64,000 bases of DNA from Myxococcota bacterium (lineage in GTDB: Bacteria; Myxococcota_A; UBA9160; JAFDDA01): contig OZ245817.1 of the NCBI GenBank assembly GCA_965228475.1, positions 2,516,209-2,580,208 of the forward strand, given 5' to 3'. Made by a program: the position numbers and the translations under genes. The notes under the pieces are model-generated. The model saw only the letters and a list, made by a program, of their open reading frames with translations, made no database searches and was not told the origin of the DNA. Below are positions 23,832 to 57,944 of this stretch, piece by piece. The first letter of the stretch is position 1, and the number at the start of each line of letters is the position of its first letter.

Positions 23832-23888
23832 CGGGTGGCGAAGGGGCCACCGCCGCGCGTCCGACCGGGCGCCGGCCGGAAACCGCCC

Positions 23889-29777: not shown

Positions 29778-29780
29778 CCG

Positions 29781-30227
29781 ATGGCGAAGATGGTCGAAAT
29801 CGATTGGAACCCGGATCCGGGAACCCTGCGCCAGTTCGGCTGGGTGGCTCTCGTGGGCTTCTCGCTGATCGCCCTTCTGGCGCACCAGGAGTGGCTGATC
29901 TTCGCTTTCGGCCTCGGCGATGCGCGAATGAAGGTGGTCGTGGGCCTGCTCGCCGTCGGCGCCCTCGCCGCCCTGATCGGCCTCGTCTACCCGAAGGCCA
30001 ACAAGCCCCTCTTCATCGGCCTGACGCTCCTGGCCTTCCCGATCGGGTTCGTACTCTCGTACGTCATCATGATCACCCTGTTCTTCGTGATCATCGCGCC
30101 GATCGGGATCCTCATGCGCCTCGCCGGACGGGATCCGATGGAGCGTGAGATCGACCCGAACGCCGAGAGCTATTGGACGCCGGCCAAACCCGCGCCGCCC
30201 AACAGCCGCTACTTCCGCCAGTTCTAG
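29781..30227 (+). CDS. SxtJ-like small polytopic membrane protein
   Basis: 148 aa with about 4 hydrophobic helices, N-terminus LRQFGWVALVGFSLIALL, and a position immediately after the carbamoyltransferase, as in the sxtI-J-K arrangement (recalled, not searched). Confidence 0.65.
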   Translation: MAKMVEIDWNPDPGTLRQFGWVALVGFSLIALLAHQEWLIFAFGLGDARMKVVVGLLAVGALAALIGLVYPKANKPLFIGLTLLAFPIGFVLSYVIMITLFFVIIAPIGILMRLAGRDPMEREIDPNAESYWTPAKPAPPNSRYFRQF

Positions 30228-36079: not shown

Positions 36080-36214
36080 GGGCGCCTCATCCCCCGATCC
36101 CGTGCACAAGTGGTACGCTGCCGCGCCGGCCGACGCCGCAGTCTAACCACCCCCCGCACGATCGAGGAGTCCCGATCCGATGAAGCCCTTCGCCGCCCCG
36201 GGAGCGTCGACCCG

Positions 36215-36946
36215 ATGAAGTCCTACGCCGCTCCGCTCGGGCTCGTCGCCGTGCTGCTCGCGGGTGCCAACGTCTACCAGTGGCAGACGGCCGCGTGGTC
36301 CTCGGACCGGACGATCGCCGACCGCTTCACCTACGTCTGGGCCAACCAGCCCGACACCTGGTACCAGAACACCTTCATGGGGATCCAGACCTGGCAGAAT
36401 CCCCTCGACGTCTGGGTGACCCTCGAGATCATCTGGGACGTCAAGCCCGATGCCATCCTCGAGACCGGCACCTTCAAGGGCGGCAGCGCCCTGCTCTGGG
36501 CGATGTTCCTCGAGCACGCCAACCCGAACGGCCGGGTCGTGACGATCGACCTCCACCCCCAGGCCTTCGACGCGCGCCGCCGCAAGCTCGCCATCGAACG
36601 CATCGACTTCCACTACGGGAGCAGCACCGACGAAGAGATCGTCGGCAAGGTCTACGAGCAGCTCGAGGGCCAGAAGGTGCTCGCGATCCTGGATTCCTGG
36701 CACGCGAAGGATCACGTGCTCGGGGAGCTCCGGGCCTTCGCGGATCTGATCCCGGTCGGCAGCTACATCATCGTCCAGGACGGCGCCGTCTGCGGCCACC
36801 CGCTCGACGACGCCGAGCCCTGCCCCGGCCCCTACGAGGCCGTTGAGGCGTTCCTCGCCGAAGACGACCGCTACGTCCCGATCCGGGAGCACGAGCGCCA
36901 CCTGATGACCGCGAACCCCATGGGCTTCCTCAAGCGGGTGAAATGA
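36215..36946 (+). CDS. CmcI/cephalosporin-hydroxylase-family SAM methyltransferase with an N-terminal anchor
   Basis: FMGIQTWQNPLDVWVTLEIIWDVKPDAILETGTFKGGSALLWA and ILDSWHAKDHVLGELR are present. Confidence 0.8.
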   Translation: MKSYAAPLGLVAVLLAGANVYQWQTAAWSSDRTIADRFTYVWANQPDTWYQNTFMGIQTWQNPLDVWVTLEIIWDVKPDAILETGTFKGGSALLWAMFLEHANPNGRVVTIDLHPQAFDARRRKLAIERIDFHYGSSTDEEIVGKVYEQLEGQKVLAILDSWHAKDHVLGELRAFADLIPVGSYIIVQDGAVCGHPLDDAEPCPGPYEAVEAFLAEDDRYVPIREHERHLMTANPMGFLKRVK

Positions 36947-40005: not shown

Positions 40006-40051
40006 GGCGCGGGCGTGTCCGAACGAGGCACTCCCGGCACGGGAGGCCCGG

Positions 40052-40519
40052 ATGGCCTGGAAGAACTGGCGCAAGGAAGTGCCGGACGTCGCCGTCGACT
40101 TCACCTGCTTCGACGTCAAGCGCCGCACGACCGGCCAGAAGCACGTCCTCTTCCGCCTGGTCGACCCGCTCGTCGTCACGCGCCACGACACCGGCGAGAC
40201 GCTCGAGCTCGCGCCGGGCTTCCTGAGCGACGGCTCGAGCGTCCCCGGCGCGCTCTGGGGCGCCCTCCACGCCGATCCGGCGGACCTGCTCGTTCCCGGC
40301 TTCGCCCACGACTACGCCTACCGGAAGAAGGCCGTCTGGCGGAAACCCGGCGGCGCGACGCGCGAGATCGACCGCTACCAGGCCGACCTCCTCCACATCG
40401 CCGTGTGCCGACGCCTACGCATCCGGAAGTCCGACCAGGAGAAGATCTTCTTCGCCCTGCGGGTGGCCGGCGGCTTCTCCTATCGCAACCGGAAGATCGG
40501 CTGGGACGGCACGGGCTAG
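40052..40519 (+). CDS. DUF1353-domain protein
   Basis: LELAPGFLSDGSSVPGALW and VPGFAHDYAYR match the DUF1353 pattern (tDgaSiP ... HDylY). Confidence 0.65.
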   Translation: MAWKNWRKEVPDVAVDFTCFDVKRRTTGQKHVLFRLVDPLVVTRHDTGETLELAPGFLSDGSSVPGALWGALHADPADLLVPGFAHDYAYRKKAVWRKPGGATREIDRYQADLLHIAVCRRLRIRKSDQEKIFFALRVAGGFSYRNRKIGWDGTG

Positions 40520-40538
40520 CGCCAGGCCGACGCGCCGC

Positions 40539-40568
40539 TTGCGCCCGCTGCACCCGCGCTCGTAGGAT
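40539..40568 (+). promoter_or_regulatory. Candidate promoter TTGCGC-N18-TAGGAT, 7 nt upstream of ATG 40576 (leaderless candidate)
   Basis: TTGCGC at 40539-40544, TAGGAT at 40563-40568, and no SD before the ATG. Confidence 0.35.
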
Positions 40569-40575
40569 CGAGCGC

Positions 40576-42798
40576 ATGAAACGATCGTCTCGGGTGCTGT
40601 ACGGCCTCTTCGTTCTGATCGCGGCGCTCGCGAGCGGTTGCGGCGGTGAGCGCACCGCGGGCGAGATCACGGGGGAACCCCGTCCGCCCGAGGCGGTGGC
40701 GGCGGCCGCCGCCGCCCAGGCGCAGGCTCGCGAAGCACTCGCGCTGCGCTCGGCCTCTGCTCCCGCCGAGAAGGCGATCCTCTTCGGCGACCTCCACGTC
40801 CACACGACCTGGTCCTTCGACGCCTTCCTCTATTCGCTGCCCGTCACCGGCGGCGAGGGTGCCTACCCGCCCGCGGACGCCTGCGACTTCGCGCGCCACT
40901 GCTCGGCCCTCGACTTCTACGCCCTCACCGACCACGCCGAGAACCTGACGCCCGCGCACTGGGCCGCGGAGAAGGAGAGCGTGCGCCAGTGCAACGCGCG
41001 CGCGGGCAACCCGGAGGATCCGGACCTCGTCGCCTTCACCGGCTTCGAGTGGACCCAGGTCGGCTTGACGCCCGAGACCCACTGGGGCCACAAGAACGTG
41101 ATCTTCCCGGGCACCGGCGAAGACGAACTCCCAGCGCGGCCGATCGGCTCCGTCGACGGGGAAGGCGGCCTCGTCTCGGGCTTCGAACCCATCGGCGGCC
41201 TGCGCTGGATCGACCCGCTCGGATTCGGGGAGTACGCGGACTTCCTGTGGCTTCTCGACGAGCTCGCCGCCCAGCCGCGCTGCGAGAAGGGCGTCGATAC
41301 CCGCTCGCTCCCCACCGAGTGCATGGAGTCGGCCACGACGCCCGCGGCGCTCTTCGAGAAGCTCGACCAGTGGGGCTTCGATGCCCTCGTCATCCCCCAC
41401 GGCACGGCCTGGGGGACGTACACGCCGCCCGGCACGACGATCGACAAGCACCTCACGGCCGAGCAGCACGACCCCGAGCGGCAGGGCCTCGTCGAGATCA
41501 TGTCCGGGCACGGGAACTCGGAGGAGTACCGCCCCTGGAACTCCGTCGAAACGGGTCCGGACGGCGCACCGATCTGCCCCGAGCCGAGCGCGGACTTCCT
41601 GCCCTGCTGCTGGCGCGCGGGCCAGATCATGCGCGAGCGCTGCGGCGACCTCCCCGAGGCCGAGTGCGAGGCGCGCGTGGAGCTCGCCCAGCAGCTCACG
41701 CTCGCGGCGAACGTCTCGCATCAGCTCGTGTTCCCGGACACCCGCGCCGAAGACTGGCTCGACTGCGACCAGTGCCGCGACTGCTTCAAGCCCGCCTTCG
41801 GCCTGCGCCCGAAGGAGACGGTCCAGTACGCGATGGCGCTCTCGAACCCCGAGGCCACCGACGAGAACGGAGACCCGCTGCGCTTCCGGTTCGGCTTCCT
41901 CTCCTCGAGCGACAACCACTCCGCGCGGCCGGGAACCGGCTACAAGCAGTACGAACGGCGCCGCATGACCGACGCGCGCGGCGTGCGCTCGGCGTTCTAC
42001 GAGAGCCTCGTCCGCCCCGAGCCGGACGTCGACCCCCAGGTGCCCCAGCCCGTCGAGGTCCGCGGCGGCCTGACCGACCGCGATACCGAGCGGGTGCAGA
42101 GCTACTTCTACACGGGCGGCCTGGTCGCCCTGCACAGCGAGGGGCGCAGCCGCGAAGCGATCTGGCGCGCGCTCAAGGCCCGCGAGGTCTACGGCACGAG
42201 CGGCCCGCGCATCCTGCTCTGGTTCGACCTGCTGAACGGCCCCGGCGGCCCGGCCCCCATGGGCAGCGAGCACGACTTCGCGGGGATCCCGCTCTTCGAG
42301 GTGCGCGCCCTCGGCGCCTTCGAACAGAAGCCCGGCTGCCCGGAGTCCGCGACGTCGGCCCTTCCCGCCGACCGCATCGAACGCCTCTGCCGCGGCGAGT
42401 GCCACAACCCGAGCGACACGCGCCACCCGATCGTCGCCCTCGAGATCATCCGCATCCGGCCCCAGGTGCACGCGGGTGAGGACGTCGGTGAGCTCATCGA
42501 AGACCCGTGGAAGCGCATCGCCTGCGAGCCGACGCCCGAAGGCTGCGTCGCCCGCTTCGAGGACGCCGAGTACCCGACCCTCGGCCGCGACGTCCTCTAC
42601 TACGCCCGCGCCATCCAGGAAGAGACCCCGGCCATCAACGGCGCCCAGCTGCGCACCACCTTCGACGAAGCCGGCAACGCCCTCGCCACCGACCCGTGTT
42701 ACGGCGACTACCGCACCGACTTCGGCGAGAACTGCCTCGCACCCGTCTCCGAGCGCGCCTGGTCCTCGCCGATCTTCCTGAACGCGAAAGCCCGCTGA
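40576..42798 (+). CDS. DUF3604-domain lipoprotein (PHP-like metal-dependent fold)
   Basis: Signal plus lipobox MKRSSRVLYGLFVLIAALASGC. ILFGDLHVHTTWSFDAF and FYALTDHAENL are present. The upstream part of the track ORF overlaps the DUF1353 gene and was rejected. Confidence 0.8.
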   Translation: MKRSSRVLYGLFVLIAALASGCGGERTAGEITGEPRPPEAVAAAAAAQAQAREALALRSASAPAEKAILFGDLHVHTTWSFDAFLYSLPVTGGEGAYPPADACDFARHCSALDFYALTDHAENLTPAHWAAEKESVRQCNARAGNPEDPDLVAFTGFEWTQVGLTPETHWGHKNVIFPGTGEDELPARPIGSVDGEGGLVSGFEPIGGLRWIDPLGFGEYADFLWLLDELAAQPRCEKGVDTRSLPTECMESATTPAALFEKLDQWGFDALVIPHGTAWGTYTPPGTTIDKHLTAEQHDPERQGLVEIMSGHGNSEEYRPWNSVETGPDGAPICPEPSADFLPCCWRAGQIMRERCGDLPEAECEARVELAQQLTLAANVSHQLVFPDTRAEDWLDCDQCRDCFKPAFGLRPKETVQYAMALSNPEATDENGDPLRFRFGFLSSSDNHSARPGTGYKQYERRRMTDARGVRSAFYESLVRPEPDVDPQVPQPVEVRGGLTDRDTERVQSYFYTGGLVALHSEGRSREAIWRALKAREVYGTSGPRILLWFDLLNGPGGPAPMGSEHDFAGIPLFEVRALGAFEQKPGCPESATSALPADRIERLCRGECHNPSDTRHPIVALEIIRIRPQVHAGEDVGELIEDPWKRIACEPTPEGCVARFEDAEYPTLGRDVLYYARAIQEETPAINGAQLRTTFDEAGNALATDPCYGDYRTDFGENCLAPVSERAWSSPIFLNAKAR

Positions 42799-44549: not shown

Positions 44550-44557
44550 GCATGCGC

Positions 44558-44563
44558 ACGCTA
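44558..44563 (-). promoter_or_regulatory. -10-like TAGCGT, 8 nt upstream of the AlkA-like ATG; no SD
   Basis: The minus strand reads TAGCGT gcgcatgc ATG (ATG at 44549). Confidence 0.3.
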
Positions 44564-44615
44564 GCGCAGGCCTGCCGCAGGCCACGTGCACGGTGCTCTC
44601 CGCACGCAGCAAGGG

Positions 44616-44621
44616 TATTCT
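44616..44621 (+). promoter_or_regulatory. -10-like TATTCT, 8 nt upstream of the GT2 ATG; no SD
   Basis: TATTCT cccgagcc ATG (ATG at 44630). Confidence 0.3.
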
Positions 44622-44629
44622 CCCGAGCC

Positions 44630-45793
44630 ATGGAGCGCCCGGTCGAAGTCTCGTTCGTGATGCCGTGCCTGAACGAGGCCGAGACCCTCGCGGATTGCAT
44701 CCGCGCGGCGAAGGGCTGCATCGAACGCCACGGCCTTTCCGCCGAGATCGTCATCGCCGACAACGGCAGCACCGACGGCTCCCAGGACATCGCCCGCAGC
44801 GAAGGCGCGCGGGTCGTCGACATCGAGGAGCGCGGCTACGGCGCGGCGCTGCTCGGCGGCTTCGAGGCGGCCCACGGCGAGTTCCTCATCATGGGCGACG
44901 CCGACATGAGCTACGACTTCGGCGAAGCGTTCCCGATGGTCGAAGCCATGCGCGCAGGGGCCGACGTCGTGATGGGCTCGCGCTTCCGCGGCCGCATCGA
45001 GCCGGGCGCCATGCCCTTCCTCCACAAGTACCTCGGAAACCCCGTGCTCTCCTTCCTCGGGCGCTTCCTCTTCCGCATCGAGATCTCGGACTTCCACTGC
45101 GGCCTGCGCGGCTTCACGAAGAAGGCCTTCCACGCGATGAACCTCCGCACGAGCGGCATGGAGCTCGCGAGCGAGATCGTCGTGAAGGCGGCCACGGGGA
45201 AGATGCGCATCGCGGAAGTCCCGGTGACGCTCCGCCCCGACGGCCGCTCCCGCGCCCCGCACCTGCGCACGTGGCGCGACGGCTGGCGGCACCTGCGCTT
45301 CCTCCTCACGCTCTCGCCGCGCTACACGCTCTTCGTCCCCGGGAGCGTCCTGCTCCTGCTCGGCGGAGCCCTGCTCGCGGCGGTGGCGCCCGGCCCGCTC
45401 TCCGTGGGCTCGGTGGTCCTCGACGTCCATACGATGCTCGTCGGGAGCCTGCTCGTGATCACGGGCTATCAGGCCATCACCACCGCCTTCGCGGCACGCA
45501 TCTTCGCGCTGGAAGAGGAGATCGGGCCGCCGGCGCCCTGGCTCGAAAAGAGCTTCTCGATCTTCACGCTCGAGCGCGGAATCGTCGGCGGGCTGCTGCT
45601 CGCGCTCCTCGGCGTCGGCATCATCGGGCGCCTGATCGCGCACTGGGCCTCCCTCGACTTCGGGCCCCTCGACGCCTCGGCGACCCTCCGCCCCATGGTC
45701 TTCGGCGCGACCTTCGTCGCCCTCGGCATCCAGACCCTCCTCATGTCGTTCCTCTACAGCATGATGGGGATCAAGCGGAGACGATCCCGCTAG
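44630..45793 (+). CDS. Family-2 glycosyltransferase with C-terminal TM helices (polyprenyl-phosphate sugar synthase type, GtrB/ArnC/DPM1-like)
   Basis: VSFVMPCLNEAETL, VIADNGSTDGS and LIMGDADMSYD (DxD) are present, followed by about 4 hydrophobic helices in the last 150 aa. Confidence 0.85.
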   Translation: MERPVEVSFVMPCLNEAETLADCIRAAKGCIERHGLSAEIVIADNGSTDGSQDIARSEGARVVDIEERGYGAALLGGFEAAHGEFLIMGDADMSYDFGEAFPMVEAMRAGADVVMGSRFRGRIEPGAMPFLHKYLGNPVLSFLGRFLFRIEISDFHCGLRGFTKKAFHAMNLRTSGMELASEIVVKAATGKMRIAEVPVTLRPDGRSRAPHLRTWRDGWRHLRFLLTLSPRYTLFVPGSVLLLLGGALLAAVAPGPLSVGSVVLDVHTMLVGSLLVITGYQAITTAFAARIFALEEEIGPPAPWLEKSFSIFTLERGIVGGLLLALLGVGIIGRLIAHWASLDFGPLDASATLRPMVFGATFVALGIQTLLMSFLYSMMGIKRRRSR

Positions 45794-45814: not shown

Positions 45815-46369
45815 ATGCGCACCATCGACCACATCCTTTCGCGCTGGCGGATCGGCAAGGCCGCCGCCTGGACGCGCCCGGGCGACCGGCTCCTCGACGT
45901 CGGATGCTACGACGGAAGCCTGATCCGCGAGGTGCGCCCACGCATCGCGAGCGCGGTTGGCATCGACGCCGTGGCCGAGCCGAGCGATGCGGGCGACGGC
46001 GTGCGCATCGTGCGAGGCCACTTCCCCGAAGACCTCTCCGAGCCCGACGGGAGCTTCGACTGCATCACGGCCCTCGCGGTGCTCGAGCACGTGACGGACC
46101 CGCCGGCCTTCGCCGCCGCCTGCCATCGCCTGCTCTCCCCCGGCGGCCGGGTCGTGCTGACGGTTCCCCACCCGCGCGTCGACGGCATCGTCGACACCCT
46201 GATCGCCCTGCGCCTCGCCGACGGCATGGACTTCGAAGAGCACCACGGGTTCGACGTCGGCCGTACACGCCCCATCTTCGAGGAGGCAGGGTTCAGGCTG
46301 CGGGCCGAGCGCGCCTTCCAGCTCGGCCTGAACCGGCTCTTCGTGTTCGAGAAGCCGGGGCCCGCCTAG
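45815..46369 (+). CDS. Class I SAM-dependent methyltransferase
   Basis: RLLDVGCYDGSLI (motif I-like) and ALAVLEHVTDP...LLSPGGRVVLTVP are present. Confidence 0.75.
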   Translation: MRTIDHILSRWRIGKAAAWTRPGDRLLDVGCYDGSLIREVRPRIASAVGIDAVAEPSDAGDGVRIVRGHFPEDLSEPDGSFDCITALAVLEHVTDPPAFAAACHRLLSPGGRVVLTVPHPRVDGIVDTLIALRLADGMDFEEHHGFDVGRTRPIFEEAGFRLRAERAFQLGLNRLFVFEKPGPA

Positions 46370-48615
46370 GGCCGCCGCAGGTCGGGGCCGGCGAGCTCGC
46401 TCCCGGCCCGGACGGCGCGCTCGGAAACCGAGAGCGATCCACTCCCGCCGCGCGCTCCCACGAGCGTGAAGTCTCCCTCGCCCTGCACCGCGCTTCCCGG
46501 CGTGGCCTCCGTCGAGTACGGCAGCACGAAGACGTAGCGGCCCTCTCCGTCGGCTTCGGCCACCGCGCGGTAGCGGTGCCGCCGACCCTGGGCCGTTCGC
46601 AGGACGAGGCTCGCTTCGACGCGCTCCCCCGGCGCGGCAAAGCCCACGACCCGCGCCCCCGCGACGATCTCCCAGATCCCGAGGGCGAAGCCCGGGGGCT
46701 CCGCAGCGAATTCGAGCGCGCGGCCGCTGCGCTGGTGCCAGAGCAGCCGATGATGCGAGAGCGCCGGCACGGCGGGTGCGAGTGCATCGGCCGGCCATGC
46801 CGTCCCGAAAGCGAAGGCCAGCCGGTGCGCGAGGGTGCCCTCCGGGTACGCGGCGGTGCGGCCGGCGCCGTGGCGGTCCGCCATCACGTAGCGGACGCCG
46901 AGCGCCTCGAGCATCGCGACGGCCTCCGCCTCGTCCCGCGCCGCGAAGTAGCGTTCGGCCGCGTCGTAGTTCGCGCGCCCGCCGTAGACGCCGAAGTTGT
47001 CCTGGATGAGCGGCCGGCGCGCGCGGTAGCGCAGCATGTGGCCCGCGTCCCAGCTCGAGAGCACGGCGTACTCCGGCAGGACCTCGGGATCGAACCAGCC
47101 GGAGGTCGGCGGGGAGTTCGCACCGAGCCACCGCGAGCCGGCATCGACGAGGCGGTTGCGAACGCCGTGCGGCCCGCCGCGGGCGACCGCCGGGTCCGCG
47201 TGGGCGCGCGCGTGGCCCTGCCAGCGTTCGAGATGGAGCGCCAGGAGGCCGTCGGCGAGGAGCAGCAGGAAGACGGCCGCGAAAGCGCCTGCCGCGATGC
47301 GGCGCCCCGTGCCCCAGCGCCGCCAGGCCGCTGCGACGAGGGGCGCCGTCTCGTAGAAGAGCCATCCCCAGACCAGCACGTAGAAGATGGAGAAGCTGTT
47401 CCCGAAGCGGCGCTGCAAGCTCGTCAGGACGAAGAAGAGGAGGCTCATCCCGAGCAGGACGAAGCGGTCTGCGGACGCGCCCGTCCGCACGCTCCGCCAG
47501 GCGAGCCAGGCCCAGGCGAAGGGGAAGAGGAAGGCCAGGATCGTCAGGCGGGAGACGATGAGGTCCGGGGAGAACGGGCGCAGCTCGCGGACCTCGTGCT
47601 GGAAGGCCTCCTCCTTGGAGAACCATCCGGCCCCGGTCGCGACGACGTCCGAGAGGCCGGGGATCACGAGAAAGGCCGCCGCAAGCGCCACGACCCCGGC
47701 GGCGACGGCGGCACCGATCCGCCGGCCGCGCGTGGCCCCGAGACCGGTTCCGAACGCGAGCGCCGCCACCCCGAGCACCCCGGCCGCGACCGCGAAGAAG
47801 GCCGGCTGGAAGTTCGAGAGCACCCACGGGCTCCACGGTCCGAACTCCGGCCACGCCTGCCCCCACCCGAACGGCGCGAGGACGACCGCGGCCACCGCGT
47901 TCGCGAGGGCCAGCCACCGGGCCCGGGCGCGCGCATCCTCCGCGCGCTCCGCGAGCAAGGCGTACAGCACGAGCAGGCCGTCGAAGGCACCGACGTGGAT
48001 CAGCGCTCCCGGCCACAGCAGCAGCAGCGCCGCGAAGAGCCCCCCGAGACCGAAGGCGCTCGCCAGCCCCGGTGCACCCGCCCGCGATGCGGAAGCGAGC
48101 GCGACGCCCGTCAGAGCGACCGCCCCGAGCGCAACGGCGACGTGGTGGTCGAGCTGCCCGGCCTGGGAGTGCAGCAGGTGGACGGGCAGGACGGCGAGGA
48201 GCCCCCCGGCCAGCCACCCGGCCCCCGGCGAGAAGTGCCGCCGTCCGACCCACGCGACGCCGACCACGGCCAGGGCGCCGAGCACCGCCGGCACGCGCGC
48301 GGCGACGTGTTCGACGGCCGTCTCGTCGCCCTCGGGCGCCACGGCGCGGGCCAGCGCCGCGATGCTCCAGTCGAAGGCCGGCGGCCAGACGATGTGCCCG
48401 CCGTGCGGGTAGTTCACGTAGCGGTCGAAGTCGAGGACGTCGGGAAAGCGCTCCACCGAGTAGGCGATGCGGCGCATGTGGTAGTAGGGATCGCCGCCGG
48501 CGGTGAAGTGCACGCCGTCGGGCTGGAGGACGAGGACCTCGGACTGCGCGCGCAGGCTCCACGCGGCGGCGAAGAGCACGAGGAAACCGAGAGCGACGAG
48601 GAGCGGGCGTCTCAT
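46366..48615 (-). CDS. STT3/AglB/PglB-superfamily oligosaccharyltransferase-like GT-C membrane protein (749 aa)
   Basis: The first-loop segment GGDPYYHMRRIAYSVERFPDVLDFDRYVNYPHGGHIVWPP parallels the STT3 pattern DPWFNYR...FD..SWYPLGR. There are about 13 TM helices. LSSWDAGHMLRY sits at the position of WWDYG, followed by ...EAEAVAMLEALGVRYVMAD. Confidence 0.8.
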   Translation of the reverse strand: MRRPLLVALGFLVLFAAAWSLRAQSEVLVLQPDGVHFTAGGDPYYHMRRIAYSVERFPDVLDFDRYVNYPHGGHIVWPPAFDWSIAALARAVAPEGDETAVEHVAARVPAVLGALAVVGVAWVGRRHFSPGAGWLAGGLLAVLPVHLLHSQAGQLDHHVAVALGAVALTGVALASASRAGAPGLASAFGLGGLFAALLLLWPGALIHVGAFDGLLVLYALLAERAEDARARARWLALANAVAAVVLAPFGWGQAWPEFGPWSPWVLSNFQPAFFAVAAGVLGVAALAFGTGLGATRGRRIGAAVAAGVVALAAAFLVIPGLSDVVATGAGWFSKEEAFQHEVRELRPFSPDLIVSRLTILAFLFPFAWAWLAWRSVRTGASADRFVLLGMSLLFFVLTSLQRRFGNSFSIFYVLVWGWLFYETAPLVAAAWRRWGTGRRIAAGAFAAVFLLLLADGLLALHLERWQGHARAHADPAVARGGPHGVRNRLVDAGSRWLGANSPPTSGWFDPEVLPEYAVLSSWDAGHMLRYRARRPLIQDNFGVYGGRANYDAAERYFAARDEAEAVAMLEALGVRYVMADRHGAGRTAAYPEGTLAHRLAFAFGTAWPADALAPAVPALSHHRLLWHQRSGRALEFAAEPPGFALGIWEIVAGARVVGFAAPGERVEASLVLRTAQGRRHRYRAVAEADGEGRYVFVLPYSTEATPGSAVQGEGDFTLVGARGGSGSLSVSERAVRAGSELAGPDLRRP

Positions 48616-48685
48616 TGCGGGCGTCCGAGCCTATCAGCCGGGGCCGAGCGCGGAAACCGTGCGCAGCGGCCCTCGGGCGGCCTGC

Positions 48686-48691
48686 TAGCCT
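48686..48691 (+). promoter_or_regulatory. Extended -10-like TGcTAGCCT, 7 nt upstream of the AAA+ ATG; no SD
   Basis: TGCTAGCCT cccctcc ATG (ATG at 48699). Confidence 0.3.
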
Positions 48692-48698
48692 CCCCTCC

Positions 48699-49625
48699 AT
48701 GGCCGAACACGACCCCATCCTGATCGAGCGAGCACGGAACCTCTGGACGAGCTTCGGGCGCAAGTTCCCCGCCATCGAGAAGTCGACCCAGATCGGCTGG
48801 CCCGAGACGCGCTTCGACCAGATCGGCGGTCTCGCGGGCCCGAAGGACGAGGTCCTGACCTTCGCCTGCGCCGCCACCAGCCCCGACGTCTACGGCCGCT
48901 GGGGAACCTTCCCGCCCTCGGGCCTGCTGCTCATCGGCGCACGCGGCACCGGCAAGCAGATGCTCGCCGAGGCGCTCGCCGAACAGGCCGGCACCGGCTT
49001 CCTGAAGATCCGCATCCCGACGCTCGTGATGGAGACCCTGCGCCACGGCGGCAAGGTCGGGGAGATGACCGAAGGCTGGAGCCAGACGCTCTCGGAGCTG
49101 CCGCCGGTCACGGTCTTCTTCGGCGAGCTCGAGTTCTACCAGGCCCACGAGTTCGGTTCCCAGCGCGATGACCTCCCGATCGGCCCGGTCATGGACTTCC
49201 TGCTCGACCTCGTCGACCGCACCGTGGCGGTCGAGCACGCCCTGACCGTCGGCTCGACGAGCTACCCGGACACGCTCCGGCCGGCTTTCCTGAGCGACCG
49301 GCGCTTCGAACGCGTCGTCGAGGTGAACCCGGTCTTCCCGGGCGACGTCGTCGAGTCCCTGCGCATCCACGCCGAATCGGCCAGCAAGCGGGCGGGCCGG
49401 CCGCTGTTCGAAGAGGTCGACTGGCTCGAGGTCGTCCGGCCCTACGCCGATCATTCCATCGCCGAGTGGGTTCGGATCCTGCACGGCGTGCTGCGCCGCA
49501 AGGCGCGCTGCGAGGCGGCCGGCGAAGCCGTGACGCCCGTCGTGACCGAGGACCTGGTCAGCGAAGCCGCCCGCGTCCAGGGCACCAAGAAGCGCTTGAG
49601 CTACGGCGAGGGGACCTACCTCTAG
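48699..49625 (+). CDS. AAA+ family protein with degenerate Walker motifs
   Basis: FDQIGGLAGPKDEV..., LLLIGARGTGKQMLAEALAE (Walker A with Q in place of S/T), VTVFFGELE (Walker B position with G-E rather than D-E) and PAFLSDRRFERVVEV (second-region-of-homology-like) are present. Confidence 0.7.
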   Translation: MAEHDPILIERARNLWTSFGRKFPAIEKSTQIGWPETRFDQIGGLAGPKDEVLTFACAATSPDVYGRWGTFPPSGLLLIGARGTGKQMLAEALAEQAGTGFLKIRIPTLVMETLRHGGKVGEMTEGWSQTLSELPPVTVFFGELEFYQAHEFGSQRDDLPIGPVMDFLLDLVDRTVAVEHALTVGSTSYPDTLRPAFLSDRRFERVVEVNPVFPGDVVESLRIHAESASKRAGRPLFEEVDWLEVVRPYADHSIAEWVRILHGVLRRKARCEAAGEAVTPVVTEDLVSEAARVQGTKKRLSYGEGTYL

Positions 49626-51696: not shown

Positions 51697-52271
51697 CCGC
51701 CCTCGACGATGGTGGCGAGCCGGAGCAGCTGGGAGCTGATCTTGAGCCCCGCCTTCTTGGCTGCCCGCTCGTTGATCTCGAACCGGATCTTCTTGTCCGA
51801 TTCGACGAAGTTGATCATGCCGCCGCGCTTCGCGAAGCGTTCGAGGTCCGCGACGAGCAGGACGGGCGAGCCCGAGAGGCTGCTCAGGATCGTGTCGACC
51901 GAGCCGCTCTCCGAGCGGCTCACGAAGAGGATCGAACAGCCGCCCGCCGCCGAGACGCTGCCGATCCGGCGCGTCTTGACCGCACGTTTCCCGACGGATC
52001 GGCCGGCGACGGTCTCGTCGAGCGTCGACCCGAAGGGGTCGTCACCGAGCACGCAGATTTCGAGGTCGCCCTTGGCGTCGGGCCACTCGACGAACTTGCC
52101 GAAGTTCAGCAGGAAGGCCGCCTTTACCTGGTACTCGGAGACGGCCGAGACGGCCGGCGCCAGCCAGAAGAGCGACGACAGGACTGCGCCCGCCAGAACT
52201 CTGTGCGCAACTTTCACTCGTTCCCCCCGCGCGGTCCCGCCGATCGGGGCCGGGTGGCCCTGCTGAAACAT
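51693..52271 (-). CDS. YfiR-family (DUF4154) periplasmic protein
   Basis: YQVKAAFLLNFGKFVEWPD and PVLLVADLERFAKRGGMINFVESDKKIRFEINERAAKKAGLKISSQLLRLA are present. Its stop overlaps the MCP start (ATGA). Start is ATG 52271 (SD GAGGGGGGA) or GTG 52217. Confidence 0.75.
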   Translation of the reverse strand: MFQQGHPAPIGGTARGERVKVAHRVLAGAVLSSLFWLAPAVSAVSEYQVKAAFLLNFGKFVEWPDAKGDLEICVLGDDPFGSTLDETVAGRSVGKRAVKTRRIGSVSAAGGCSILFVSRSESGSVDTILSSLSGSPVLLVADLERFAKRGGMINFVESDKKIRFEINERAAKKAGLKISSQLLRLATIVEGG

Positions 52272-52440
52272 CGGCAGAAGATCCCCCCTCTTGAGCGCAG
52301 CCTCCGTGGAAGACCACGGCCCCTCCGGAGAAAACCCTGGACGAGGCTGACGGGACGCCGGTCCCTTCCTCGGCGTGCCCGGCGCTCGGCGCCGCCGGTT
52401 TTGCGCTCGACGCGCGGGCCCGTTGCGTCGAAGTTTGGGG

Positions 52441-52469
52441 TTGGAAAGCCCCGAGGCCGGACCTATTCT
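52441..52469 (+). promoter_or_regulatory. Candidate sigma70-type promoter TTGGAA-N17-TATTCT
   Basis: TTGGAA at 52441-52446 and TATTCT at 52464-52469. A leader hairpin GGTCGCC gagg GGCGACC (52474-52491) and SD GGAGG follow, then ATG 52506. Confidence 0.45.
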
Positions 52470-52505
52470 GCCCGGTCGCCGAGGGGCGACCGGAGGTTCC
52501 CTCGC

Positions 52506-54917
52506 ATGCTCGCCCACCGCGCCCGCCCGACGGCCCTCGCCCTCGCCACCGCGCTCTCGCTCACGATGGCGCTCGGGTGCACCCCGGCCATCGACGCCCA
52601 GCTCGCCGAGGCGCAGTCCCTCGTCGCGGAAGGGCAGCCGCTCGCCGCCCTGCCCTTGCTCGAACGCGTGCTCGAGCGACGGCCGGCCGACGGCGCCGCG
52701 AACCTGCTGCTCGGCCAGGTCCTGATCCAGGTCGGCCGCATGCGACCCGCGGCGGCACCGCTCGCCAAGGCCATGGAGAGCGAACGCTATGCCGTTCCCG
52801 CTGGCCTGCTGCTCGCCTCGGCGCAGCTTGGCGAAGGCCGGCCGGCCGAGGCCCTCGCGACCGTCGACCAGGTGCTCGCCTCCCATCCGGACCAGCCGGC
52901 CGCGCTGCGCATCCGTGCGACGGCAAGGCTCCAGGCCGGCGACGCCGAGGCGGCGCTCGCCGACGCCCAACGTCTGATCGAGGTCGCCCCGGACGATGCC
53001 CAGGGCCCGCTGCTGCTCGGCACGGCCCTCAGCCGGCTCGGCCGCCTCGACGAAGCCGAGCAGATCCTGGGCGAGCGCGAACGCGCCGCCCGCGAAGCCG
53101 GCGGCGCCGGCCATGCCCACCTGTGTTCCGCCTTCGCGACCTTCCTCGCCGCCGGCAGGCAGGACCTCGCGCGCGCCGAAGAAACCTGGCTCCGCTGCCT
53201 CGAGACCAACCCCGCGGACGCCATGGTGCTCCAGGGCGCGACGCGCTTCTTCGACCAGCGGGGGCAGGGCCAGCGCAGCGTCGAAATCCTCCGCCGCGCC
53301 GTCGAAGCCGCCCCGGACGCTCTCGGCATCCGCCTCGGCCTGGCGACGCGGCTCTCCGCGGCGGGCGACGCGGCCGAAGCCGACGCCCTGCTCGCCGAGT
53401 TCGCCGAGAGCTCGCGAGCGCCCCAGGCCTGGCAGGCCCTGGCGCTCTTCCGCGGCGAGCGCGGGGACACCGCCGGCGCGCGGGACGCCGTCGAACGCGG
53501 CCTCGAGGCACCGGGCGAAATGGCGGACGCCCTGCGCTTCCTGCACGCGGGCTTCCTGATCGAGCTCGGCGAAGCCGACGCCGCCGAAACCGTGATCGCG
53601 GCGATCGAAACGCCGGACCTCGCGGACCTGACGACCGCTCGCCTGCAGCTGATCCGCGGCCAGGCCGCCGCGGCCCTCGACACCCTCGAAGGGATCACGG
53701 CGCGGAGCCCGACCGACGTCCGCGCCCACTACCTCGCCGGCATCGCTTCGCAGACCCTCGGCCAGGTGGACCCCGCGCTGCGCTCCTTCGAGACGGCGAC
53801 GGAGCTCGAGCCGGCCACCACGGACGCCGCCATCGCCGCCGCCCGCCTGAACGCAGCCCTCGGGAACCACGCCCAGGCCATCGAGATGGCCCAGCGGCAC
53901 CGCGCCTCGCGCCGCACGGCCCATCCCGAGACTTACCGGCTCGAAGCCCGTTCGCGCATCGCCTCGGGTCAGCCCGCCGCCGCCGTCGCGCTCCTCGAGC
54001 GGGAACTCGAGCGCGGCCCCGGAAGCGCGGACCCGACGCTCTGGCTCCTCCTCTGCGACGGCCTCGAGGCCTCGGGCGGTGCCGACGCCGCCCTCGCCCG
54101 CCTGGAACGCGAACGCCGGAACGGCCTCGACCTCACGGACCCGGCCCGGCTGCCGATCCTCGAGCGCTACGGCTGGCTCTCGGTCCGCACCGGGCAGCCG
54201 GACCGCGCCGCCAAGGCCCTCGCCGAGGCCGCCGCGCGCAGCCCCGAGTCCGTCCCGCTGACCGTGCTCGAAGGCGTCTTCGCGGCCGCCACCGGCGACC
54301 CCGAAAAGGCCGACGCCGCCTTCCGCCGCGCCGCCGAACGCGCTCCGGAGGACCCCCTGGCCCTCGCCCACCTCGGCCGCTGGCTCGCCGGCCACGGCGA
54401 AGCGGAGGCCGGTCTCGCGCTCCTCGAGAAGGCCGAGACGATCGCGCCCGGGCAACACGAGGCGGCCTTCCACTCGGCGCGCATCCTCACCGCCCTCGGC
54501 CGCAGCGACGACGCCGAGGCCCGCCTGCGCGCCGTGGTCACCCGCGACCCCTTCCACGCCGGTGCAGCGAACGACCTCGCCTGGCTCCTCGCGGAGGAGC
54601 GCCGGGACCTCGAGTTCGCCCTCACCCTCGCGCGGCGCGCCGTCCGGCTCCAGCCCGGCGACGCCACCCTCGACACCCTCGGCTGGGTGCTGCTCCAGTC
54701 GGACCAGCTCGATGCCGCGCTCGCCACCTTCGAAGAGGCGATCACGCTCGCGCCGGGCAACCCCTCCTACCGCTACCGCCTGGGCAGCACGCTCGAGCGG
54801 CTCGGCCGGGTCGAGGAGGCGCGCAAGGCCTACGAGCAGGCCCTGAACGAGCCGTCCTCCCCGGTGGCCGAGGACGCCCGGAGCGCCCTCGCACGGCTCT
54901 CGGAAGGGGCCGGCTGA
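52506..54917 (+). CDS. TPR-repeat lipoprotein (803 aa)
   Basis: Signal plus lipobox MLAHRARPTALALATALSLTMALGC, followed by continuous TPR-like Ala/Leu-rich repeats to the C-terminus. Confidence 0.8.
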   Translation: MLAHRARPTALALATALSLTMALGCTPAIDAQLAEAQSLVAEGQPLAALPLLERVLERRPADGAANLLLGQVLIQVGRMRPAAAPLAKAMESERYAVPAGLLLASAQLGEGRPAEALATVDQVLASHPDQPAALRIRATARLQAGDAEAALADAQRLIEVAPDDAQGPLLLGTALSRLGRLDEAEQILGERERAAREAGGAGHAHLCSAFATFLAAGRQDLARAEETWLRCLETNPADAMVLQGATRFFDQRGQGQRSVEILRRAVEAAPDALGIRLGLATRLSAAGDAAEADALLAEFAESSRAPQAWQALALFRGERGDTAGARDAVERGLEAPGEMADALRFLHAGFLIELGEADAAETVIAAIETPDLADLTTARLQLIRGQAAAALDTLEGITARSPTDVRAHYLAGIASQTLGQVDPALRSFETATELEPATTDAAIAAARLNAALGNHAQAIEMAQRHRASRRTAHPETYRLEARSRIASGQPAAAVALLERELERGPGSADPTLWLLLCDGLEASGGADAALARLERERRNGLDLTDPARLPILERYGWLSVRTGQPDRAAKALAEAAARSPESVPLTVLEGVFAAATGDPEKADAAFRRAAERAPEDPLALAHLGRWLAGHGEAEAGLALLEKAETIAPGQHEAAFHSARILTALGRSDDAEARLRAVVTRDPFHAGAANDLAWLLAEERRDLEFALTLARRAVRLQPGDATLDTLGWVLLQSDQLDAALATFEEAITLAPGNPSYRYRLGSTLERLGRVEEARKAYEQALNEPSSPVAEDARSALARLSEGAG

Positions 54918-55058: not shown

Positions 55059-57944
55059 ATGCGTCACGCTTCAGTCCGTTTTCACGTCGCCCTGCTCTGC
55101 GCCGTCCTCGCCGGCTCGCTCCAGACGGGCGCCGGCTGCAACGAGAACCCGCGCCCGGCGGTCGGGAGCCAGCTCTTCACGAGCCCCCAGACCAACCCCA
55201 TCGCGCTCTCGAGCGACGGCCAGGTCGTCTACGTGGCGAACACCACGGCCGGCAACGTGACCCTGATCGATGCCAACCCGCCCCACGCCCGGCTCGGCGT
55301 GATCCGCGTCGGCATGGACCCGGTCGGCATCGCCGTCAAGCCGAAGGCGCTCCCGACGGACGACGAGATCCTGCTCGTCACGAACCACATCTCGGACACG
55401 ATCTCCGTCGTGAACGTGAACCTCGGCCAGGTCGTGCAGACCCTCCAGGAGCTCGACGGCAACGACGTCAGCCAGACCGACGAGCCCGTCGGCGTGGCCT
55501 TCGACGGGCCGACCCGCGCCTTCGTCACTCTCGACCACCCGAACCAGGTGATCGGCATCGAGTTCGACGGCTCGGGCAACGCCACGATCTCCGAGGACCG
55601 CGCCACCCTCACCGCCCAGGCACCGCGGGCCATCGCCGTCTCGAACGGCCGTGTGTACGTGGCGGCCTTCGAGTCCGGGAACCAGAGCGAGTTCACCTCC
55701 TGCGGCGCGGGCGGCGGCCCGCCCTACGACCCGAACGGCAACGGCGGCGAGGGCACGGGCTGCGAGTTCCCGCTCAACTTCACCAACCTGCTCGCCTTCG
55801 CGACGAACCCGAACATCGGCGGCGAGGTCGTCCACAACGGCCTCCTCCCGGACCGGGACCTGTTCGTCTACGACGCGCTCGACTTCTTCGACGCCAACGG
55901 CTCGAGCCAGGCCGTCACGCCCGACGACGTGGTCGAGGGGCTCGGCACGCTGCTCTACGGCGCGACGGCGGTCGGCGACACGCTCTACCTCACGAACACC
56001 GACGCGCGGAACAAGCTCGACGGACTCAGCGCCCTCGGCAACCGGATGTTCGAGAACCGGCTCGCGATCGTCTCCTGCCCGGGCGGGAGCTGTGGCGCGC
56101 CGAGCCTCGTCGACCTCGAATCCGGCGGGGCGAACCCCTTCGGCGTGCCCGTCCCGACGCCCTACGGCATCCGCGCGGCCGACGACGGACTCGTGCTCGT
56201 CGCGAGCGTCGCCGGCTCCGACGGCGAGCCGGCGGACCTCGGCGACCCGAGCACCGTCAACGTGGACATTCCCGGCCTCGTGACGCTCGACGCGGCCGGG
56301 AACGTCCTCGGCCACGTCCAGACCGGAGCGATTCCCCAGGGCGTCGCCCTGCGCTCGGACGGCGGCGGCGCCGCCGAGACCGCCTACGTCCTGAACACGG
56401 TCGATTCGACGCTCTCCGTGGTGGACGTCTCGAACCCGGCCGCGCCCACGGTCACCGCCACGGTCTCCGCCGGCTTCGACCCGACGCCCGCCGTCGTCCG
56501 CGAGGGCCGCATCGCCTTCAGCTCGGCGCGGGCCTCGACCGGCGGCACGTTCTCCTGCGAGTCCTGCCACCCGAGCGGCAACATCGATCAGATCGCCTGG
56601 ACCATCAATTCGGACCTCGGGCCCCAGGATTCCTGCGGCGGCTCCATCGCCTGCCCCGAGCCGCGGTCGACCATGCCGATCCGCGGCCTGCGCGACACCC
56701 TCCCGCTGCACTGGGTCGGAAACCTCGCCGACCCGTTCCCGGGCGTCGGCGTCGGCGGCCCGGAAGATCCGGTCGCACCGGACTGCGACCTCCTCGTCGA
56801 CGGCGAGACCGGCTGCATCCGCCACCTCGTGAACGCGAGCCTCTCGGGCGTCATGTGCGACCAGAGCGGCGGCTGCGCGAACGGCCCCTCGGGCCTCGCC
56901 GGCGCGCTCACCGACACCGAACGCGACGCCATGGCCGAGTTCCTGGCAGCGGTCGCCTTCCCGCCCGGCCCGGCGCGGCGGGTCGACGACGTCCTCTCCG
57001 CCTCCGCGGACGCCGGCGTCGACGACTTCTTCCTCGACAACGGCGGCCTCGGCGGGATGGTCGGCGCCTTCGCGGCAACGTGTTCGAGCGACGAAGGCGG
57101 GTGCCACGCCCTGCCCCTCACGGTCTCGACGAACTCGGCGGTGGTCGGCGGCTTTGACGCGCCTTCGATCCGCGGCCTCTGGGACCGCCACATCACCTTC
57201 TCGAACGGCTTCACGAGCTCCCAGGACCACCTGCTCGAGCAGGGCTTCGACCCGGCCCCGGGCGGCATGAGCGAGCTCGGCTCGCTCTCGGCGACCTTCC
57301 CCAGCCTGTTCACGATCGCCTACGGCGTGCCCGTCACGAACATCTGGGCGCTGATCAACGAGATGAGCGTCGGACTCCCGGGCGCCACGGGCCGCCAGCT
57401 CGACCTGACGCCCACCAACTCGGGCGACGCCACGGTCGGGAGCCGGCTCGCCCAGATCGAAGCCGTCGCCGGTGAGGGCCGCGTCACGGCCACCGCTGAG
57501 GGCCTCGGCGTCAGCTACCACTACGAGCCGACGGCGAGCGCCTGGCGCCCGACCCAGGGCCCCGACGTCAGCGGCACGGACCTGCGGAACCTCGCGGTGA
57601 CCAACGGCCGGACGATCCTGGTGACGGCGCGCCTGCCCGAGGGCATGTCGATCGGCGGCGCGGACCGGCAGCCCCTGCTCTCGGCGGACGACCGGCCGAA
57701 CGTCACGGGCGGGAGCCCGTCGATGGTCGTGATCGAACAGTACGTCGACCCGGCGGCCACGATCCTGGTCGACGGCGTCCTCTGCGGCGGCTGCTCCCTG
57801 GCCCTCGGCGGCGGGAACGCGACCATCACGTTCTCGCCCCTGCCGAGCAACGGGCTCCACGTGGTGCAGGTCCACAACCCGAACAGCTACGCGAGCAACG
57901 AGTTCCCGTTCTGCGTCAACGGAGGCTGCAACACCGGCTTCTAG
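55059..57944 (+). CDS. Lipoprotein fusing YVTN-type beta-propeller repeats to a di-haem cytochrome-c-peroxidase/MauG-like region (961 aa)
   Basis: Signal/lipobox ...LAGSLQTGAGC. Propeller repeats include DGQVVYVANTTAGNVTLID and LLVTNHISDTISVVNV. GRIAFSSARASTGGTFSCESCHPSG carries a CxxCH motif, and the R-x-x-P-I-RGL and FDAPSIRGLWDR contexts resemble the CCP family. Confidence 0.8.
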   Translation: MRHASVRFHVALLCAVLAGSLQTGAGCNENPRPAVGSQLFTSPQTNPIALSSDGQVVYVANTTAGNVTLIDANPPHARLGVIRVGMDPVGIAVKPKALPTDDEILLVTNHISDTISVVNVNLGQVVQTLQELDGNDVSQTDEPVGVAFDGPTRAFVTLDHPNQVIGIEFDGSGNATISEDRATLTAQAPRAIAVSNGRVYVAAFESGNQSEFTSCGAGGGPPYDPNGNGGEGTGCEFPLNFTNLLAFATNPNIGGEVVHNGLLPDRDLFVYDALDFFDANGSSQAVTPDDVVEGLGTLLYGATAVGDTLYLTNTDARNKLDGLSALGNRMFENRLAIVSCPGGSCGAPSLVDLESGGANPFGVPVPTPYGIRAADDGLVLVASVAGSDGEPADLGDPSTVNVDIPGLVTLDAAGNVLGHVQTGAIPQGVALRSDGGGAAETAYVLNTVDSTLSVVDVSNPAAPTVTATVSAGFDPTPAVVREGRIAFSSARASTGGTFSCESCHPSGNIDQIAWTINSDLGPQDSCGGSIACPEPRSTMPIRGLRDTLPLHWVGNLADPFPGVGVGGPEDPVAPDCDLLVDGETGCIRHLVNASLSGVMCDQSGGCANGPSGLAGALTDTERDAMAEFLAAVAFPPGPARRVDDVLSASADAGVDDFFLDNGGLGGMVGAFAATCSSDEGGCHALPLTVSTNSAVVGGFDAPSIRGLWDRHITFSNGFTSSQDHLLEQGFDPAPGGMSELGSLSATFPSLFTIAYGVPVTNIWALINEMSVGLPGATGRQLDLTPTNSGDATVGSRLAQIEAVAGEGRVTATAEGLGVSYHYEPTASAWRPTQGPDVSGTDLRNLAVTNGRTILVTARLPEGMSIGGADRQPLLSADDRPNVTGGSPSMVVIEQYVDPAATILVDGVLCGGCSLALGGGNATITFSPLPSNGLHVVQVHNPNSYASNEFPFCVNGGCNTGF

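Follow-up and report, generated by a model that had tools for sequence, protein, structure and literature searches.

A 64,000-nucleotide stretch of contig OZ245817.1 from a Myxococcota bacterium (assembly GCA_965228475.1; hereafter the window) encodes a 749-amino-acid membrane protein that an earlier note, made from the DNA letters alone, had described as an oligosaccharyltransferase of the STT3/AglB type with a degenerate form (SWDAG) of the WWDYG motif. By its modeled fold and its aligned catalytic residues, this protein belongs to the STT3 superfamily, yet it lacks two features of such enzymes, the WWDXG motif and the DK/MI motif. We are inclined to think that it is an active AglB-type enzyme that would use a short sugar linked to a lipid monophosphate and made by its neighbors, a GT2 glycosyltransferase and a methyltransferase, and that its acceptor is probably asparagine, though not chosen by the canonical N-x-S/T rule. 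Our broader proposal is more tentative, a little short of even: the clade to which the protein belongs would have rebuilt the acceptor site of an archaeal-type AglB (with WWD and DK lost and RPxVQDNFG and YHxRR gained) and, paired with the GT2 and the methyltransferase, would form a new periplasmic glycosylation system that attaches a short methylated sugar by a rule other than N-x-S/T, be it a new asparagine sequon or another nucleophile.

The open reading frame (ORF) begins with ATG on the minus strand, and its GC content by codon position (0.77/0.54/0.92) matches the pattern of real genes in this window, which is 71% GC. The four peptides quoted in the earlier note were all located in the translation (GGDPYYH at residues 40-46, HEVRELRP at 340-347, SWDAGH at 521-526, and VRYVMAD at 574-580). 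Pfam identifies an STT3 N-terminal domain (E = 3.5e-13), an AglB_core-like domain (6e-12), and AglB_L1 (3e-15), all of which pass the gathering cutoffs; the PMT, PMT_2, and ArnT models gave no match to the protein at E up to 1. The best NCBIfam model was TIGR04154 (oligosaccharyl transferase, archaeosortase A system-associated), which scored 289 bits over residues 11-581. This is under the curated cutoff of 450 bits, so the protein is not assigned to that family. Among PDB sequences, phmmer matched only the C-terminal domains of three AglB proteins from Archaeoglobus fulgidus. We also built a family profile from 45 homologs of the protein. This profile matched the full-length AglB-L of A. fulgidus (AfAglB) with E = 3.6e-102 over residues 11-743, as compared to about 1e-23 for human STT3A, about 1e-12 for yeast STT3, and 1e-4 for PglB from Campylobacter lari. 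The earlier note was right about the superfamily, but the bacterial PglBs of Campylobacterota and Desulfovibrio that it chose for comparison were off target.

An AlphaFold2 model made from the same alignment is confident (pLDDT 94.2, pTM 0.93) and contains 13 long helices ahead of residue 473 and a mixed alpha/beta domain behind them. When we searched for similar structures with Foldseek, four AfAglB entries ranked first (TMq 0.73-0.77, E around 1e-29), with 7e9s at the top (TMq 0.77, E = 2e-29), and were followed by eukaryotic STT3s, DPY19 (E = 7e-10), and PglB (TMq 0.47-0.49). ArnT (TMq 0.34-0.35) and AftA (about 0.35) were weaker, and matches to PMT were not significant (E > 0.1). Together, the model, Foldseek, and Pfam give the architecture of the GT66 superfamily, with an N-terminal domain of 13 transmembrane (TM) helices in the STT3 fold and an extracytoplasmic, globular C-terminal domain. 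By both profile and modeled fold, the protein is an archaeal AglB-type enzyme and is neither PglB-like nor ArnT/PMT-like. AfAglB itself (3WAJ/5GMY/7E9S) is a euryarchaeal single-subunit N-oligosaccharyltransferase with the same 13 TM helices and periplasmic core and peripheral domains. In contrast to AfAglB, the window's protein is bacterial, is about 120 residues shorter, and is missing several AfAglB-specific insertions.

We mapped the residues of the protein onto AfAglB with a HMMER profile alignment and took the roles of the AfAglB residues from PMC8342417 (Table 1). For conservation, we aligned the window's protein with 193 relatives of at least 600 amino acids. Of the aligned proteins, 118 share a DNF motif and form what we will call the strict clade, to which the counts below refer; the other 76 are wider relatives. 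The catalytic aspartate and glutamate both align, and the earlier note had correctly placed the aspartate of external loop 1 (EL1), the TIXE-like element of external loop 5 (EL5), and the position of WWDYG. D42, the counterpart of D47 in AfAglB and D56 in PglB, is present in 113 members, and the remaining five are gapped at this column. In the second DXD motif, which lies in EL2 and coordinates the divalent metal in AfAglB, D156 and H157 are each found in all 118 members and H158 in 114. The EL5 element is of the TIXE/SVSE type, with E341 (neither Thr nor Ser) at its first position, and EVRE-LRP corresponds to TIAE-VYP in AfAglB; E344 is conserved in 117 members, P347 in 106, and V342 in 105. 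In both AglB and PglB, the backbone of the acceptor peptide is paired with the C-terminal half of EL5, a stretch that is retained across the clade as [x]-V-x-E-[L/S]-x-P. We presume that W201, like W215 of AfAglB, has a role at the lipid-phosphate site. The set of D42, D156, H158, E344, and R403 is complete in 108 members, and another five are gapped N-terminally, at D42 only; almost every one of the 76 wider relatives retains the set as well. Strong purifying selection thus acts on the metal, catalytic, and phosphate-site residues throughout this large clade.

The counterpart of H81 of AfAglB is a hydrophobic residue in the window's protein. The DGGK/DGGR motif of PglB and euryarchaeal AglB is presumed to bind the lipid-linked donor, and its place is occupied by Y544-G-G-R547, with G546 in 92 members and R547 in 48; another subclade reads GDDV. 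The YGGR of the window's protein resembles the DGGR of Desulfovibrio PglBs (PMC12229607).

The acceptor side of the active site is quite different. In the WWDXG motif, Trp-Trp-Asp binds the hydroxyl group of the serine or threonine at position +2 of the sequon, and the DK or MI motif completes the pocket. SWDAG lies at exactly the position that the earlier note had given: HMMER places it column-for-column on WWDYG in all three AglB C-terminal domains from A. fulgidus. W522 and D523 are, we assume, equivalent to two of the three residues that bind the +2 hydroxyl in PglB. But the strict clade has x-W-x-x-G-H here, not WWDXG. Position 521 is Pro in 40 members, Ala in 23, Ser in 13, Arg in 10, Asn in 7, and Trp in just 1. 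Position 522 is Trp in 111 members, and position 523 is Gly in 45, Asp in only 30, Ser in 13, Ala in 8, and Thr in 6. G525 is found in all 118 members and H526 is invariant. Some members lack even the tryptophan (NTRAGH, PLRYGH, and HPTLGH), while the nearest relatives of the window's protein read xWDAGH. As for the DK (DxxKxxxM/I) and MI (MxxIxxxI/V/W) patterns, neither is recognizable in VRYVMADRHGAGRTAAY, which is the region where they would be expected. The lysine of the DK motif in AfAglB, K618, has no counterpart in the window's protein; against the family profile, HMMER treats its column as an insertion or variable column, and the commonest states there are a gap (25), His (24), Arg (13), and Ser (13).

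The earlier note had suggested that the W-to-S and Y-to-A changes alter the recognition of the acceptor. For the first change, the suggestion gains support from the clade, as the first tryptophan is absent from 117 of 118 members, the aspartate is kept in 30, and at the K618 column the members vary or have a gap. The Y-to-A change is uninformative, since the motif is known to be variable at its fourth position: methanogens have WWDNG, and functional PglBs from Desulfovibrio have WWDWG (PMC5131992, PMC11407970, PMC12229607).

Directly downstream of this site, the clade has an invariant motif of its own (consensus RPxVQDNFG). D539, N540, and F541 define the strict clade, R534 is found in 117 members, and G542 in 108. 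G542 lies in the column of Q571 of AfAglB, which is "close to the peptide site" (PMC8342417). H526, R534, and F541 align with conserved flanking residues of AfAglB (H555, R563, and F570). EL1 also has a clade-specific motif, Y45-H46-x-R48-R49, shortly after D42. In this alignment, the pocket for the +2 Ser/Thr has been dismantled across the clade, with the first tryptophan lost, the aspartate unconserved, and DK/MI unrecognizable, and a new conserved surface (RPxVQDNFG) is predicted beside the former pocket.

The clade is large. We scanned 1.84 billion cluster representatives exhaustively with HMMER and obtained 2697 matches with E <= 1e-3, of which 440 had E <= 1e-30. The named members of the clade are from metagenome-assembled genomes (MAGs) that are labeled "Myxococcota bacterium" or "Deltaproteobacteria bacterium", and the databases call the proteins "STT3 domain-containing protein" or "hypothetical protein". 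Among GTDB species representatives we found seventeen loci, all of them in MAGs and none in a cultured organism. Our literature searches turned up no account of this clade, of AglB-type enzymes from Myxococcota, or of STT3 homologs without WWD. The SWDAG protein is part of a large uncharacterized clade from uncultured Myxococcota-type MAGs, and the loss of the motif is not a one-off.

Four MAGs contain two paralogs (loci L001/L015, L004/L009, L005/L008, and L007/L016, in our numbering of the related loci), and the paralogs have differing motif variants such as RWDAG and NWGVG. In three of these four pairs, one copy adjoins genes for a GT2 and a methyltransferase and the other copy does not; for L007/L016, neither copy has the GT2-methyltransferase pair within the sequence that we fetched. 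More distant paralogs lack the pair altogether. A tblastn search found no second STT3 paralog in the window. A distant relative, P0048 (825 amino acids), retains Trp-Asp; its motif is AWDLG in one alignment and FWDLG in another. Its locus (L024, 8001-18478) is a pgl-like cluster for oligosaccharide assembly, with an initiating phosphoglycosyltransferase (Glycos_transf_4), two GT4s, a GT28, a GT2, and an ABC exporter. No other relative was seen in such a cluster. In the alignment, P0048 has proline in the column of E344 and histidine in the column of R403, which may be alignment errors. Two loci with the clade's enzyme, L002 and L014, are from MAGs that are labeled Spirochaetaceae/Spirochaetales (L002 is 59% GC), and L002 has the same GT2-methyltransferase-STT3 operon. 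This reflects either horizontal transfer or a wrong label for the bin.

The earlier note's account of the gene context left out its most informative part, which is the conserved pair of adjacent genes for a polyprenyl-phosphate GT2 and a methyltransferase. The best NCBIfam match of the GT2 is AglJ (E = 3e-36), although its score of 125 bits is far under the equivalog cutoff of 325, and the next matches are PpgS, a haloarchaeal dolichyl-phosphate (Dol-P) hexose transferase, and ArnC. Its best matches in PDB are the Dol-P-Man synthase DPMS from Pyrococcus (5mlz, 2e-16) and ArnC (6e-11). The GT2 has four hydrophobic segments at its C terminus, and the GT2_TM_C domain (PF26629) is found in its ortholog from L019 and its homolog from L018. 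Because of the matches to AglJ, DPMS, and ArnC, the C-terminal segments, and GT2_TM_C in L018 and L019, we classify it as a predicted polyprenyl-monophosphate sugar synthase. The nearest relatives of the methyltransferase in PDB are O-methyltransferases of the UbiG type (2e-9).

A GT2, usually with the methyltransferase, adjoins the STT3 homolog in about 11 of 22 loci. All three genes are co-located in L001-L004, L006, L013, L018, and L019, and they form same-strand operons in L002, L004, and L018, at just 38-40% identity of the STT3 homolog. In the closer loci, the GT2s are 58-69% identical while the STT3 homologs are 38-54% identical.

The earlier note had also remarked that several exported proteins of the window are unusually rich in N-x-S/T. 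We compared 37 predicted proteins of the window, each to 500 shuffles of itself, and found in the exported proteins no excess over what amino-acid composition would give. The protein at 21876-23729 has 7 sequons where 4.5 are expected (z = 1.3), the protein at 55059-57944 has 9 where 7.4 are expected (z = 0.7), and a protein with a PEP-CTERM sorting signal (described below) has 3 where 5.1 are expected. The sequon density of the highlighted proteins reflects their Asn/Ser/Thr-rich composition and not selection for sequons. With its small sample the test has little power, and it neither supports nor excludes N-glycosylation.

We propose the following mechanism. On the cytoplasmic face of the membrane, the adjacent GT2 would use a nucleotide sugar as its donor and load the sugar onto undecaprenyl (polyprenyl) monophosphate, like AglJ, DPMS, ArnC, or GtrB. 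The adjacent methyltransferase, which is predicted to depend on S-adenosylmethionine (SAM), may then (O-)methylate the lipid-linked sugar. A flippase would carry the lipid-linked product across the membrane, and the AglB-like enzyme would transfer the short glycan in the periplasm. There, a divalent metal and the pair of D42 and E344 would activate the acceptor's nucleophile. Since the clade retains both EL5 and the D42/E344 pair, the most likely acceptor would be the amide of an asparagine in a protein, held as an extended peptide under EL5, and its choice would be independent of the canonical rule for Ser/Thr at +2. In favor of this proposal, P0048 offers a contrast, as it keeps Trp-Asp and lies within a complete oligosaccharide-assembly cluster. 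Euryarchaeal AglBs, the closest characterized relatives, use donors that are linked to a monophosphate (PMC8342417), which fits with the GT2 neighbor of the window's gene.

Could the protein instead be an ordinary N-oligosaccharyltransferase that reads N-x-S/T, with W522 and D523 sufficing and the W-to-S and Y-to-A changes due to neutral drift? Both residues are kept in the window's protein and its nearest relatives (xWDAGH), the catalytic site and the peptide-pairing motif of EL5 are intact, and the fourth position of the motif varies in functional enzymes (PMC5131992, PMC12229607). However, across the clade the aspartate is not under selection and some members lack the tryptophan. Furthermore, the DK/MI partner is unrecognizable while neighboring residues are invariant, and the exported proteins of the window showed no sequon enrichment, albeit in a test with low power. 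We consider neutral drift in an ordinary enzyme to be unlikely. If the degenerate motif were instead a sign of decay, then the protein might be a dead or decaying remnant of an STT3, and the archaeo_STT3 score of 289 bits (under the 450-bit cutoff) would be consistent with that. But the ORF is full-length with a strong coding signal in the GC content of third codon positions (GC3), there are 440 cluster representatives with E < 1e-30, and the AlphaFold2 model is confident. The metal, catalytic, and phosphate-site residues are near-invariant, a new invariant motif has arisen, and the biosynthetic neighbors are conserved. Because of this conservation, a pseudo-enzyme is very unlikely.

A serious alternative, which we find about as improbable as neutral drift, is that the STT3 fold has been re-purposed as the GT-C arm of a three-component system, so that a single sugar would be transferred to an acceptor other than asparagine (another side chain, a polysaccharide or lipopolysaccharide (LPS), or a lipid). 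A conserved GT2 partner of the GtrB/ArnC/DPMS type is a hallmark of such systems, the sequon pocket has been lost, and MAGs often have two paralogs with just one beside the GT2-methyltransferase pair, which is reminiscent of families with one donor and several acceptors. There is also a precedent among the structural matches, the C-mannosyltransferase DPY19, which has another acceptor and a Dol-P-monosaccharide donor. On the other hand, the large periplasmic AglB core and the peripheral domains are retained and conserved, as are the [x]-V-x-E-x-x-P of EL5 and the D42/E344 pair that would activate an asparagine amide. And neither the window nor the related loci have conserved genes for polysaccharide synthesis or LPS flanking the STT3-like gene. 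Finally, the general GT-C fold is common to many families, and this is all that would suggest that the protein is from a different one (the ArnT, PMT, or DUF2723 type) and only superficially STT3-like. We ruled this out, to the point of a negligible probability: the only Pfam matches are to STT3/AglB, the TMq of ArnT and AftA is about 0.35 versus 0.77 for AfAglB, and the alignment to AfAglB is full-length and includes all of the catalytic residues.

Several points weigh against our own proposal of an active enzyme with a short donor and a rule other than N-x-S/T. A dedicated small flippase (of the GtrA, ArnE/F, or GtcA type) was found neither at 43.8-49.6 kb of the window nor among the genes tabulated for L018 and L019, and it could be encoded elsewhere in the genome. 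The GT2-methyltransferase pair is missing from about half of the related loci. Other glycosyltransferases may also be encoded elsewhere, and the glycan could then be longer than we propose. The methyltransferase is generically UbiG-like, and its substrate is a guess on our part. The window's protein itself retains W522 and D523 and could still read N-x-S/T through them; because these residues survive, a residual preference for Ser/Thr is possible. And the donor sugar, the acceptor, and the sequon are, for every member of the clade, what we infer.

How does this cluster compare to known systems? The PglBs of Campylobacter and Desulfovibrio are also single-subunit enzymes of the STT3 superfamily, lie in the inner membrane of Gram-negative bacteria, and transfer glycans in the periplasm. 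They are only remote relatives by both profile and structure, and they keep WWD along with an MI or NL motif. PglBs use oligosaccharides on undecaprenyl pyrophosphate, which are built by a pgl cluster that encodes both an initiating phosphoglycosyltransferase and an ABC flippase; in contrast, neither of these is found among the neighbors in the window, which has just the polyprenyl-monophosphate GT2 and the methyltransferase. Three-component periplasmic glycosylation systems (PMC11127046), such as GtrA/GtrB/Gtr*, ArnC/ArnT, CsbB/YfhO, and Ppm1/PMT, resemble the window's cluster in that a GT2 with a C-terminal TM domain is linked to an extracytoplasmic GT-C enzyme. But STT3/AglB-type enzymes are not known as the GT-C partner in such systems, and the window's cluster lacks a gene for a GtrA-like flippase and has the methyltransferase as an extra conserved component. 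DPY19 (7ZLG-7ZLI) has an STT3-like fold, uses a Dol-P-monosaccharide donor, and has abandoned N-x-S/T recognition. It is eukaryotic, has neither the periplasmic core nor the peripheral domains of the AglB type, and is far more distant than AfAglB. It is a precedent for re-purposing and not a relative. Lastly, the Agl pathway of Haloferax volcanii has the same three types of enzymes as the window's cluster: AglJ (a GT2), AglP (a methyltransferase), and AglB. AglP is a SAM-dependent methyltransferase that acts on a lipid-linked sugar. The Haloferax pathway needs several more glycosyltransferases and yields a pentasaccharide.

Table 1. The STT3-like gene of the window, its motifs, and the adjacent biosynthetic genes (window coordinates; residue equivalences refer to AfAglB)
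Feature	Position	Strand	Description
AglB-type STT3-family GT-C glycosyltransferase gene	46366..48615	-	749 aa; 13 predicted TM helices plus periplasmic AglB_core and AglB_L1 domain
EL1 motif GGDPYYH	48478..48498	-	D42 = AfAglB D47 (GND), first DXD metal/acceptor-binding Asp
Second DXD motif D156-H157-H158	48142..48150	-	Identical to the AfAglB D161-H162-H163 metal site
W201	48013..48015	-	Aligns with AfAglB W215; 114/118
EL5 element HEVRELRP	47575..47598	-	E341-V-R-E344 aligns to AfAglB T357-I-A-E360 (TIXE); E344 = catalytic Glu
Q401-R-R403-F404	47404..47415	-	R403 = AfAglB R426, near the phosphate site (PMC8342417); Q401 and R403 118/118
SWDAG (S521 W522 D523 A524 G525), then invariant H526	47041..47055	-	Aligns to AfAglB W550-W-D-Y-G554
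Clade-specific invariant R534-P-L-I-Q-D539-N540-F541-G542	46990..47016	-	Consensus RPxVQDNFG; G542 in the column of AfAglB Q571
VRYVMADRHGAGRTAAY	46846..46896	-	Expected DK/MI region; neither motif recognizable
GT2 polyprenyl-phosphate glycosyltransferase (AglJ/DPMS/ArnC/GtrB type)	44552..45793	+	413 aa; Pfam Glycos_transf_2 3.6e-25; probable start M27, nt 44630
Class I SAM-dependent methyltransferase	45815..46369	+	184 aa; Pfam Methyltransf_23 1.4e-23; converges on the STT3 gene, stop codons overlap

On the other side of the STT3-like gene, and divergent from it, is an AAA ATPase with a single CDC48/PAN-like AAA domain (48615-49625, plus strand). Its listed TTG start abuts the start codon of the STT3-like gene, and the true start is probably a downstream methionine (MAEHDPI). 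Only two loci, the close relatives L001 and L019, conserve it in this position. Genes of the sulfatase/alkaline-phosphatase superfamily recur beside STT3 homologs that are without, or apart from, the GT2-methyltransferase pair (L003 6574-7992 and 10108-11802, L015 12178-12861, L022 11900-14029, and L023 10387-11700), and the window has a type I phosphodiesterase at 33084-34676.

The window also encodes an exosortase of the EpsH family (31216-32322, minus strand; 2.4e-50), a 1369-amino-acid PQQ-like beta-propeller protein that ends in the PEP-CTERM sorting signal IPEPAAGALMLCGWLALMASLRWPMLWSAVLRR (23835-27944, plus strand), and a tetratricopeptide repeat (TPR) protein whose best match, below the cutoff, is PrsT of the XrtA system (52203-54917, plus strand). 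These genes parallel the "archaeosortase-associated" oligosaccharyl transferase model that is the best NCBIfam match of the STT3-like protein. A tblastn search found no exosortase near the STT3 homologs in 24 other loci (L001-L024), so we did not adopt a link to an exosortase system. Directly downstream of the PEP-CTERM gene are a carbamoyltransferase of the NodU/CmcH type (E = 1.7e-97) and a small membrane protein that resembles SxtJ (27954-30227, plus strand). A second sugar-type methyltransferase, from the rhamnosyl O-methyltransferase/CmcI family (1e-47), is at 36110-36946 (plus strand), about 9 kb from the cluster. A long ORF in the +1 frame (40015-42798, plus strand) has a match to DUF3604 (7.6e-24) and overlaps a 155-amino-acid ORF (40052-40519) of even stronger GC3, so the boundaries are ambiguous.

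One of the sequon-bearing proteins discussed above, at 55059-57944 (plus strand), is a 961-amino-acid lipoprotein with YVTN beta-propeller repeats at its N terminus, a CESCH haem-c-like motif, and no Pfam matches. Homologs with 24-25% identity over about 700 amino acids are found at L014 2469-5735 and L017 3069-6098 (both on the minus strand), about 2 kb from distant STT3 paralogs in those MAGs. The lipoprotein is a possible partner or acceptor, but these genes may also be close together by chance. With just two independent contexts and no sequon excess, we did not adopt it as a dedicated acceptor, and we view it as a lead.

To our knowledge, recognition of N-x-S/T by the WWD pocket has been treated as universal for STT3, AglB, and PglB in all three domains of life. 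A large natural clade that has a conserved catalytic set yet no WWD pocket would be a ready-made experiment on the acceptor specificity of oligosaccharyltransferases. The clade could reveal a new code for protein glycosylation in bacteria, or else the STT3 fold put to a new use. It might also provide a tool for glycoengineering: a single-subunit transferase that is less strict, or novel, in the sites that it requires and whose donor pathway is minimal, with just two genes. And it would extend AglB-type enzymes, as opposed to PglB-type enzymes, into the Bacteria, which bears on the evolution of N-glycosylation.

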